A DNA stretch of 40,069 nucleotides from the IMG/VR virus record IMGVR_UViG_2526164633_000045, positions 1 through 40,069 of that record. The stretch is one strand, 5' to 3'. Below, piece after piece: positions 3,133 to 3,524 of the stretch. The DNA is from a virus (Duplodnaviria; Heunggongvirae; Uroviricota; Caudoviricetes). The notes under the pieces were generated by a model. That model was given only the letters and a program-made list of their open reading frames with translations. It did no database searches and had not been told where the DNA came from. The stretch's first letter is position 1. Each line of letters starts with the position of its first letter. Position numbers and translations under genes: made by a program.

Positions 3133-3426
3133 ATGCCATTCCACCCAACTGGTGAGGCATCAAGGATGTACAGCAAATACGACGAGGCGCAGTTTCACTT
3201 GAGACTTCCGCATGAACTCCACGAGAAAATTAAACAGCGCGCGAAGATGAATAACAGGTCGCTGAACTCTGAGATAATTGCAGCGATTGAAGAATCATTG
3301 ACTAAACAAAGCTCTGCATCAGTTTACATTGACGATGCAGAGCGTATGGCAGAACAACAATCTGATATGGTTAAGAAAATTGTCTTTGATACGCTCAAGG
3401 AGCTATATAAAAAAGACAGCAACTAA
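3133..3426 (+). CDS. mnt: Mnt-like ribbon-helix-helix repressor (Arc/MetJ family)
   Basis: ...QFHLRLPHELHEKIKQRAKMNNRSLNSEIIAAIEESL...NDAERMAEQQSDMVKKIVFDTLKELYKK matches P22 Mnt along its whole length. Alternative start at ATG 3166 (MYSKYDEAQF...). No arc or ant gene is adjacent. Confidence 0.8.
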   Translation: MPFHPTGEASRMYSKYDEAQFHLRLPHELHEKIKQRAKMNNRSLNSEIIAAIEESLTKQSSASVYIDDAERMAEQQSDMVKKIVFDTLKELYKKDSN

Positions 3427-3446
3427 CCATCCATTACGGAGGATTT

Positions 3447-3524
3447 ATGCAAAGAGATATGATGAATATTGCATTCTACATATTTGGTTTTTGCACTTTC
3501 CTGGTATTTGCAAAGCTATTCTGA
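3447..3524 (+). CDS. Candidate 25-aa hydrophobic peptide (MQRDMMNIAFYIFGFCTFLVFAKLF)
   Basis: ATG preceded by GGAGG at 4-nt spacing, directly downstream of mnt on the same strand. Single predicted TM-like segment. Its 3' end overlaps the convergent 3' end of the gp16-like gene. Too short to appear in the ORF track; hand-read coordinates. Confidence 0.3.
   Translation: MQRDMMNIAFYIFGFCTFLVFAKLF

Follow-up and report, generated by a model that had tools for sequence, protein, structure and literature searches.

T4 Imm and HK97 gp15 are phage-encoded inner-membrane proteins that prevent the DNA entry of related phages. In P22, the slot between gene 16 and the tailspike gene 9 holds the superinfection-exclusion gene sieA, in the order gene 16 - sieA - orf59a - mnt - arc - ant - 9. 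In BTP1, the corresponding slot gives rise to STnc6030, a lysogen transcript (mean of about 90 transcripts per million) that is antisense to the tailspike 5' end and the injection-gene 3' end (Owen et al. 2020, Microb Genom 6:e000330; PMC7067206). Here we describe a 25-codon open reading frame (ORF) in this slot of a 40,069-nucleotide (nt) stretch of viral DNA, IMG/VR virus record IMGVR_UViG_2526164633_000045 (hereafter the window). Judged by its conservation and selection, this micro-ORF is a real, widespread and unannotated small protein-coding gene. We consider its best reading, at a probability of roughly 0.55, to be that of a SieA-like superinfection-exclusion micro-protein that is co-transcribed with the repressor gene mnt. 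The remark in the original prediction that P22 carries sieA in this interval was borne out, and proved to be the key lead to this proposed function.

STnc6030 is one of the closest described systems. Expressed from a plasmid, it totally excludes BTP1 and does not exclude P22, while its expression leaves the titre of induced BTP1 unchanged (PMC7067206). It was classed as non-coding because it contains 'no ORFs >60 amino acids' (PMC7067206), and a 2025 review still lists it as an antisense RNA.

A 25-codon ORF follows mnt

The window sequence is identical to that of E. coli E2863 (NZ_AP018802.1), where it forms a P22/Sf6-like (Lederbergvirus-type) prophage between dacD and sbcB. The micro-ORF and its neighbours in the window are as follows.

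1107-3044, minus strand: tailspike gene, with a P22 head-binding domain
3166-3426, plus strand: mnt, 86 amino acids, an Arc-fold repressor with the Mnt C-terminal domain, named 'Arc family DNA-binding protein' by the Prokaryotic Genome Annotation Pipeline (PGAP)
3438-3442, plus strand: Shine-Dalgarno (SD) sequence GGAGG, with a 4-nt spacer to the ATG at 3447, invariant in all loci with the mnt context
3447-3524, plus strand: 25-codon ORF, MQRDMMNIAFYIFGFCTFLVFAKLF, encoding a predicted single-helix hydrophobic peptide, the proposed superinfection-exclusion micro-protein
3516-5909, minus strand: ejection (DNA-transfer) protein of 797 amino acids, an Sf6 gp13 / P22 gp16 homolog with an N-terminal SLT domain

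The micro-ORF begins 20 nt downstream of mnt, and no terminator was seen between the two or following the micro-ORF. Its end overlaps the convergent ejection gene by 9 nt, the stop and last two codons of that gene. The encoded peptide would consist of a short polar head (MQRD) and one hydrophobic helix, with a grand average of hydropathy of 1.12 overall and 1.94 in the core. All coordinates of the 25-residue hydrophobic ORF that the original prediction had pointed out, with GGAGG at 4 nt and a convergent overlap with the ejection gene, were verified.

The peptide has escaped annotation. Neither Pfam, NCBIfam, PHROGs nor PADLOC returned a match for peptides of this kind (E<=10), and the exact peptides are absent from a collection of 15 billion proteins. 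A full-text literature search for the peptide string found nothing in searchable papers, and the micro-ORF is annotated in none of the GenBank or RefSeq records examined.

The micro-ORF is conserved and selected in its own frame

To collect homologous loci, we anchored the search on an 18-mer of the ejection gene that does not touch the ORF. This returned 83 IMG/VR loci, to which phage loci were added. The homologous stretch is held by 85 of the 88 anchored loci, which represent 44 nucleotide haplotypes, all of them open and free of insertions or deletions. The start codon is ATG in 84 of these 85 loci and CTG in one. When genome contigs were scanned with the same 18-mer, only two chance matches were found, in unrelated metagenome-assembled genomes. 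Among 5,426 complete E. coli genomes, 316 (about 6%) carry the 25-residue form, LF82 being one of them.

The three remaining anchored loci (L015, L034 and L088) are identical to one another. They keep the ejection-gene end, which reads …LSW* instead of …LSE*. In place of the micro-ORF they have an unrelated, AT-rich sequence of ~190 nt ahead of the tailspike gene.

Purifying selection is seen in the frame of the ORF. There the pairwise ratio of non-synonymous to synonymous polymorphism (pN/pS) is 0.31, falling to 0.19 for the hydrophobic core. Other open frames give values of 0.8-1.8, and the antisense frame that shares its wobble positions gives 0.34. A minimum spanning tree contains 34 synonymous and 42 non-synonymous changes, compared with an expectation of 26% synonymous (P=3.6e-4), and no other open frame showed a synonymous excess on this tree. 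We rejected an antisense ORF as the selected element, as the wobble-matched frame has stops in all 52 haplotypes of the 25-residue subfamily and lacks a Met in half of the 23-residue subfamily described below.

Homology starts precisely at the ORF ATG under differing upstream contexts. The upstream neighbour is mnt in IME10; Gally, 720R6 and VSe13 have a 171-residue lipoprotein gene there, and Sf6 and 683R2 have the start of the tailspike gene. Each context supplies its own SD, which is GGAGG after mnt, AAGG after the lipoprotein gene, and either GAG or GGGGG in loci of the Sf6 type. The micro-ORF is absent from Sf101, whose mnt is the same but whose ejection gene ends differently. A divergent homolog (locus L154), from a phage only ~75% identical to known phages, keeps MNRDLLNIAFYIFGFCTF through 9 synonymous changes in 19 codons, and the peptide is preserved at 65-75% nucleotide identity.

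These data also bear on the possibility that the ORF is not a functional gene but an accident of the AT-rich 3' flank of the ejection gene, kept for DNA or RNA reasons such as control of late-operon read-through before the tailspike. The ORF is indeed very short and missing from the three loci above, its core TTCTACATATTTGGTTTTTGCAC is highly conserved within E. coli, and a weak hairpin spans the stop codons. However, such an accident accounts neither for frame-specific selection and the lack of stops or indels in ~80 haplotypes of two subfamilies, nor for an ATG and SD kept in unrelated contexts and a peptide that outlasts so much nucleotide divergence. Both strands fold no better than shuffled sequence (z about 0), and RNAalifold gave a positive covariance term with no compensatory pairs, so that no structure has covariation support. 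On these grounds a conserved RNA element in place of a gene was rejected, and we regard a non-functional ORF as very improbable. Stop codons and synonymous-site drift, which had been named in advance as signs of a spurious ORF, were looked for among relatives; all 44 haplotypes proved open and under purifying selection in their own frame. The predicted gene for a small hydrophobic peptide is thus genuine.

A homolog lies within the STnc6030 transcript of BTP1

The BTP1 locus (L227) contains a homolog of the micro-ORF, MERDLLNFVFLIFGLVVGKLLFA, at positions 2501-2572, with the SD GGAGGG and a TATAAT 25 nt upstream. STnc6030 has been placed at 403942-404727 (786 nt) and STMMW_03891 at 402294-404261 (PMC7067206). 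Using the published coordinates and primers, we mapped the pPL-STnc6030 cloning primers to L227 2095 and 2880; the clone therefore carries the micro-ORF with its SD. No other ATG ORF of 15 codons or more in the STnc6030 transcript has an SD in front of it.

The published escape mutations suggest a protein target. Four single-nucleotide polymorphisms (SNPs) that escape STnc6030 lie within 36 bp at the injection gene 3' end, and 4 of 4 are non-synonymous (PMC7067206). The interval that they span encodes injection-protein residues 583-595 (ILGIGTVTNPALV). In a five-protein alignment, these residues align with P22 gp16 540-552, including P546, and BTP1 G576 aligns with P22 G532. G532W and P546S are the exact changes of P22 gp16 that allow escape from SieA (PMC10883804). 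The corresponding segment in the window is as follows.

3699-3737, minus strand: ejection-protein codons 725-737 (IIGYGTAMNPATT), the predicted target segment, aligned with BTP1 583-595 and P22 gp16 540-552

In the model published for STnc6030, the lysogen transcript pairs with the late mRNA of the incoming phage and destabilises it; the ORF would then be incidental, or the RNA would have a dual function. In its favour, STnc6030 is abundant, is antisense to two late genes and acts specifically on BTP1, and the escape SNPs fall in its annotated 3' part (PMC7067206). With no terminator after the ORF, a window transcript through mnt and the ORF would likewise run on, antisense to the ejection gene. 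Nevertheless, antisense pairing leaves unexplained the frame-specific synonymous excess and the invariant length, start and SD of the ORF, which on the late strand lies between genes. Over-expressed STnc6030 has no effect on the titre of induced BTP1 even though induction uses the same late mRNA, and a single SNP would not be expected to prevent pairing between RNAs that match perfectly over several hundred nt. Each of the escape SNPs alters the protein, and does so at the segment homologous to the SieA-escape site. In addition, the main species on the Northern blot is about 480-500 nt (PMC7067206), and the micro-ORF stop lies ~478 nt from the annotated STnc6030 5' end. If this species starts at the annotated 5' end, it would end at the hairpin just after the ORF and stop short of the SNPs. 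Overall, we consider the antisense model unlikely as the explanation of exclusion.

We instead propose that exclusion of the STnc6030 type is brought about by the peptide rather than by the RNA. As a single helix in the inner membrane, the peptide would poison the DNA-delivery conduit on engaging the glycine-rich hydrophobic segment of its cognate gp16-type ejection protein. It would then be the smallest superinfection-exclusion protein known and the evolutionary alternative to SieA in the slot. We give this more specific proposal about an even chance. It would also account for the behaviour of induced prophages, an open puzzle under the antisense model, since a block that acts at entry, as we propose, would leave induction unaffected.

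The micro-ORF belongs to a family of 22-26 residues

The window and BTP1 peptides are members of a family of 22-26 codons, found at 214 loci, that shares M-x-R-D-x-L-N-x-A-F-x-I-F-G followed by a hydrophobic tail; the window peptide fits this motif as M-Q-R-D-M-M-N-I-A-F-Y-I-F-G. Family members occur in phages Sf6, L, ST64T, ST104 and BTP1, and a tblastn search found members in BTP1, g341c, MG40, Klebsiella phage phiKp_30 and E. coli phage HF4s. Phage L, together with ST64T, ST104 and SPN9CC, carries a 23-codon ORF (MNRDLLNFAFLIFGIVVGRLLFA) at the same place, overlapping the gene 16 end. A peptide-level pattern for this 23-residue subfamily yielded 68 further IMG/VR loci. The subfamily comprises 35 haplotypes, all exactly 23 codons long. 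Nearly all show GGAGGATTT-ATG at the start, and in every one the convergent gene ends in ...AQGAKSEALSE.

In the 23-residue subfamily, pN/pS is 0.20 over codons 2-19, and over the five codons that the search pattern leaves free (15-19) it is 0.46, versus 1.3-1.6 in frames with other wobble positions. A value of 0.46 is likewise obtained for the wobble-matched antisense frame, whose start codon (Met) is missing in half of the haplotypes. A profile-profile comparison of the 25- and 23-residue subfamilies with hhalign gave a probability of 97% (E=8e-11).

The family is tied to one type of ejection protein and to loci that lack sieA. Every locus obtained with peptide-only patterns is convergent with an Sf6/L-type gene-16 homolog ending ...AQGAKS(D/E)ALSE. 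A sieA gene of type A (P22) or type B (HS1) was found within 3 kb upstream in 0 of the 214 ORF-bearing loci. In P22 and HS1, the sieA 3' end lies ~21 nt from gene 16 and leaves no room for the micro-ORF. Peptide type also co-segregates with the target segment, the 25-residue form occurring with IIGYGTAMNPATTGAAVS and the 23-residue form with I[LM]GIG[TS]VTNPAL[VIL]GVGGG.

Several features of these loci are recorded here as observations in their own right. In locus L026 (IMG/VR 645058835_000001), the C-terminal region of the gp16 homolog switches to unrelated sequence (…RIKREKGCVGMILVD|YGTAMNPATT…) inside the predicted target segment, which suggests a recombination or insertion junction. In Gally (L001 1965-2480), as well as in L002, L004 and ~40 IMG/VR loci, the micro-ORF is preceded, at a distance of 21 nt and in the same orientation, by a lipoprotein gene of 161-171 residues (phrog_6067, lipobox LLAGC). 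Its product could be a second lysogen-expressed envelope factor; its similarity to Cor and spanins is at the level of the signal peptide only. In phage L, the interval from the micro-ORF to mnt holds orf62 (L156 2563-2865; also in ST64T and ST104), a late-strand gene whose product resembles a lipoprotein (…FLAGCATATK…).

The Sf6-type context was also inspected for a promoter. No canonical sigma-70 promoter for the ORF was found there: a TATAAT/TATGAT ~25 nt upstream of the ATG is conserved, with no spaced -35 element. This sequence lies in the short spacer between the tailspike start and the micro-ORF (L227 2420-2480, L005 2410-2500 and Sf6-type loci), which also keeps an imperfect inverted repeat, GCCGCACAAG...CTTGCGCAGC; a late-strand hairpin just ahead of the tailspike gene would result.

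mnt and its upstream region

The longest ORF over mnt spans 3133-3426, and both the PGAP start and the start aligned with P22 are at 3166. The product contains an Arc-like ribbon-helix-helix domain at its N-terminus (PF03869, E=4e-16, residues 7-49) and a tetramerisation domain (Repressor_Mnt) at its C-terminus (PF11423, E=3e-14, residues 57-82), both identified with Pfam. It is 50% identical to P22 Mnt over 80 amino acids. The tailspike gene starts at 3044 on the minus strand, which leaves 121 nt between it and mnt. No Arc or Ant homologs are encoded between the tailspike gene and mnt, and thus the complete immI module (mnt-arc-ant-sar) is not present. The window gene map therefore agrees with the original prediction that mnt occurs without arc and ant and that the tailspike follows directly. 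An orphan mnt is, however, not unusual. It is the commonest context in the sample studied here, being found at 57 of the 120 loci of the 25-residue subfamily that have enough upstream sequence, and mnt-only 'ant morons' have previously been described in ST64T, ST104, Para1 and L (PMC2629481, PMC8022706).

Three features were noted upstream of mnt.

3038-3066, plus strand: promoter-like site CTGACA-17-AATGAT, a weak candidate for Pmnt from consensus scans, in which the number of sites is at chance level
3070-3092, no strand: inverted repeat ATGCAACCA / TGATTGCAT with 9-nt arms, the only copy in the window, adjoining the candidate Mnt operator
3091-3105, no strand: candidate Mnt operator ATACCGAAATGGTAC, an imperfect palindrome with half-sites TACCG/TGGTA

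The inverted repeat is kept across loci with the mnt context. The candidate operator occupies the same place as P22 Omnt and the Gally-type palindrome, and each of the three is followed by TATTGAG. The operator that it had been suggested to look for has this one candidate upstream of mnt. No good second copy was found near the Rha gene or anywhere in the window; regulation of the Rha gene by Mnt, suggested at the same time, was rejected for this reason.

Proposed mode of action

Directly established at the level of sequence are the existence and conservation of the ORF, its frame-specific purifying selection and fixed position, the absence of sieA and the homology to the BTP1 ORF. From these we propose the following. 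The 20-nt gap and the lack of a terminator suggest that mnt and the micro-ORF form one operon behind the candidate Mnt operator. As the second cistron of the mnt operon, the micro-ORF should be expressed in the lysogen. Once translated, the peptide would insert in the inner membrane as one helix, as its hydropathy predicts. There it would block the DNA-delivery conduit of incoming ejection proteins that carry the cognate glycine-rich hydrophobic segment (725-737 here). The 25-residue version of E. coli would then play the same role as the BTP1 peptide.

A real small membrane protein could also serve another role. It might be a type I-toxin-like or abortive-infection peptide with a late antisense antidote, or a modulator of a host membrane protein, like AcrZ, MgrB or MgtS. 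Its size, hydrophobicity and convergent overlap resemble those of type I toxins and small membrane regulators, it would be expressed from the lysogenic strand in a known moron slot, and in other phages it is partnered by a lipoprotein moron. With the type I toxins Ibs, TisB, ShoB, Ldr and Hok it shares a length of ~20-30 residues, one hydrophobic helix and overlapping convergent transcription. Unlike them, it appears to be co-transcribed with a repressor gene and has neither a translation-blocking leader nor a dedicated conserved antisense small-RNA promoter. Its strong SD is unstructured and lies in the 20-nt gap behind a constitutively expressed repressor gene, where no SD-sequestering leader was detected (fold z-score 0.2, no covariation). 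Among conserved promoters for an antisense small RNA, none was found: the only promoter-like site (3595->3567), inside the ejection gene, keeps its -10 T in 5 of 135 loci, as a chance match would, and was rejected. No toxin family was matched in Pfam, NCBIfam, PHROGs or PADLOC (E<=10). The type I toxin architecture raised by the original prediction is not supported. In BTP1, the incoming phage is blocked while host and induction are unharmed, and no toxicity was reported for the BTP1 clone (PMC7067206). A role outside exclusion also leaves aside the strict linkage of the ORF to one gp16 type in all loci from peptide-only patterns. We judge such a role to be somewhat less probable than even the antisense model.

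Several points weigh against reading the peptide as an exclusion protein. The BTP1 experiment covers the whole transcript, RNA and peptide together, and fits the published antisense model as well, unlikely as we find it; the escape SNPs also lie inside the annotated 786-nt antisense RNA, and 4 of 4 non-synonymous SNPs alone are not significant. Translation and membrane insertion of family members are predictions. Of 23 residues, the window and BTP1 peptides have only ~8 in common, chiefly among the first 14 from the N-terminus. The constraint is moderate (ratio of non-synonymous to synonymous substitution rates, dN/dS, about 0.2-0.45), and a common A22E polymorphism places a charge near the helix end. 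The co-segregation of the peptide with the gp16 segment may be plain linkage, because the two are ~200 nt apart. Finally, phage L carries the ORF yet has been described as without known exclusion genes (PMC8022706); this is compatible with an exclusion function only if its specificity spares P22-type phages, as it does in BTP1.

Other features of the prophage

The 797-residue ejection protein of the window is longer than its Sf6 counterpart (665 residues) owing to an SLT lytic-transglycosylase domain, which is joined to the N-terminus of the gp16-type body. Further features of the prophage are listed below.

33-1066, plus strand: O-antigen acyltransferase (Acyl_transf_3, oac-like), split into two coding sequences, next to the tailspike gene
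9226-9759: NUMOD4-domain protein gene (homing-endonuclease-like), flanked by the gp10-type and tail-needle genes
11328-12541: IS1203 (IS3-family), inside a gp4-family 'packaged DNA stabilization' gene, as annotated by PGAP
23131-23286: tRNA-Thr and tRNA-Asn genes, within the prophage, between the Q-type antiterminator gene and the lysis genes

The split acyltransferase gene is probably a frameshifted pseudogene. Since IS1203 lies within the gp4-family gene, the prophage is probably defective; mnt and the micro-ORF are intact despite this insertion elsewhere.

Significance

If the peptide is indeed the effector, STnc6030, a published and still-cited example of exclusion by antisense RNA, would be a micro-protein system, and the escape of prophage induction from STnc6030, which puzzled its authors, would be explained. 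The classic model phages Sf6, L and ST64T, and about one in every seventeen complete E. coli genomes, would harbour an overlooked phage-resistance gene, with consequences for the typing of phages and for their use in therapy. Along with SieA, the peptide would single out one short gp16 segment as the vulnerable point of the P22-type DNA-delivery conduit, for which a 25-residue probe would be at hand. It would also be a case in which annotation length cut-offs (60 amino acids in the original study, about 30 in gene callers) have hidden a functional gene.

Comparison with known systems

Exclusion of superinfecting phages by inner-membrane proteins of prophages is already known, as is the orphan mnt; what is new here is the micro-gene family. 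T4 Imm and HK97 gp15 are much larger than the micro-peptide (about 80 amino acids or more, with two or more helices), and are unrelated to it in sequence and genomic context.

The surroundings of the micro-ORF resemble the P22 immI region or 'ant moron' (mnt-arc-ant; Villafane et al. 2008, PMC2629481). Both have mnt and, at the same place, a palindrome followed by TATTGAG, which is Omnt in P22 and the candidate operator in the window. Both also lie in the variable slot for morons that separates gene 16 from gene 9. The window lacks arc, ant and sar. Sf6 has been described as without an ant moron altogether, yet it has the micro-ORF.

The STnc6030 locus is like that of the window in lying in the slot between a gene-16 homolog and the tailspike gene, on the same strand, and in containing a homolog of the ORF. 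Its expression in the lysogen is known for BTP1, as is the specificity of its exclusion for phages with the cognate ejection protein. STnc6030 was published as a 786-nt non-coding antisense RNA and begins inside the BTP1 tailspike gene, with no mnt there, whereas the window ORF is the second cistron behind mnt and its peptide is of the 25-residue subfamily.

SieA and the peptide differ in build. SieA has 164-212 amino acids, several membrane helices and the cytoplasmic motif FxRYPxEAxxFNK, whereas the peptides have 22-26 amino acids, one helix and no such motif; P22 SieA matches phrog_7745 and the peptide matches no PHROG. The best local alignment of the peptide with P22 SieA has E=0.026 (shuffle p 0.01-0.17), and that with type B SieA (HS1) is at noise level and matches a different helix. 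An origin of the peptide as a relic of the last SieA membrane helix is therefore not supported, the similarity to P22 SieA being weak and inconsistent and that to HS1 type B lacking. P22 'orf25' was also rejected as a homolog, as it belongs to an unrelated locus in the orf25-orf80 region.

In position and proposed action, SieA of P22 is nevertheless a close counterpart (Leavitt et al. 2024, mBio; PMC10883804). It occupies the same slot and strand with its 3' end abutting gene 16, and is expressed from the prophage; an inner-membrane location has been shown for SieA and is predicted for the peptide. Their ranges differ: P22 SieA acts on hybrids that carry the ejection proteins of Sf6, L or CUS-3, whereas P22 is not among the phages that STnc6030 excludes. 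The mutations that escape SieA and STnc6030 nonetheless fall in the same gp16 segment, at P546 in P22 and within residues 583-595 in BTP1.

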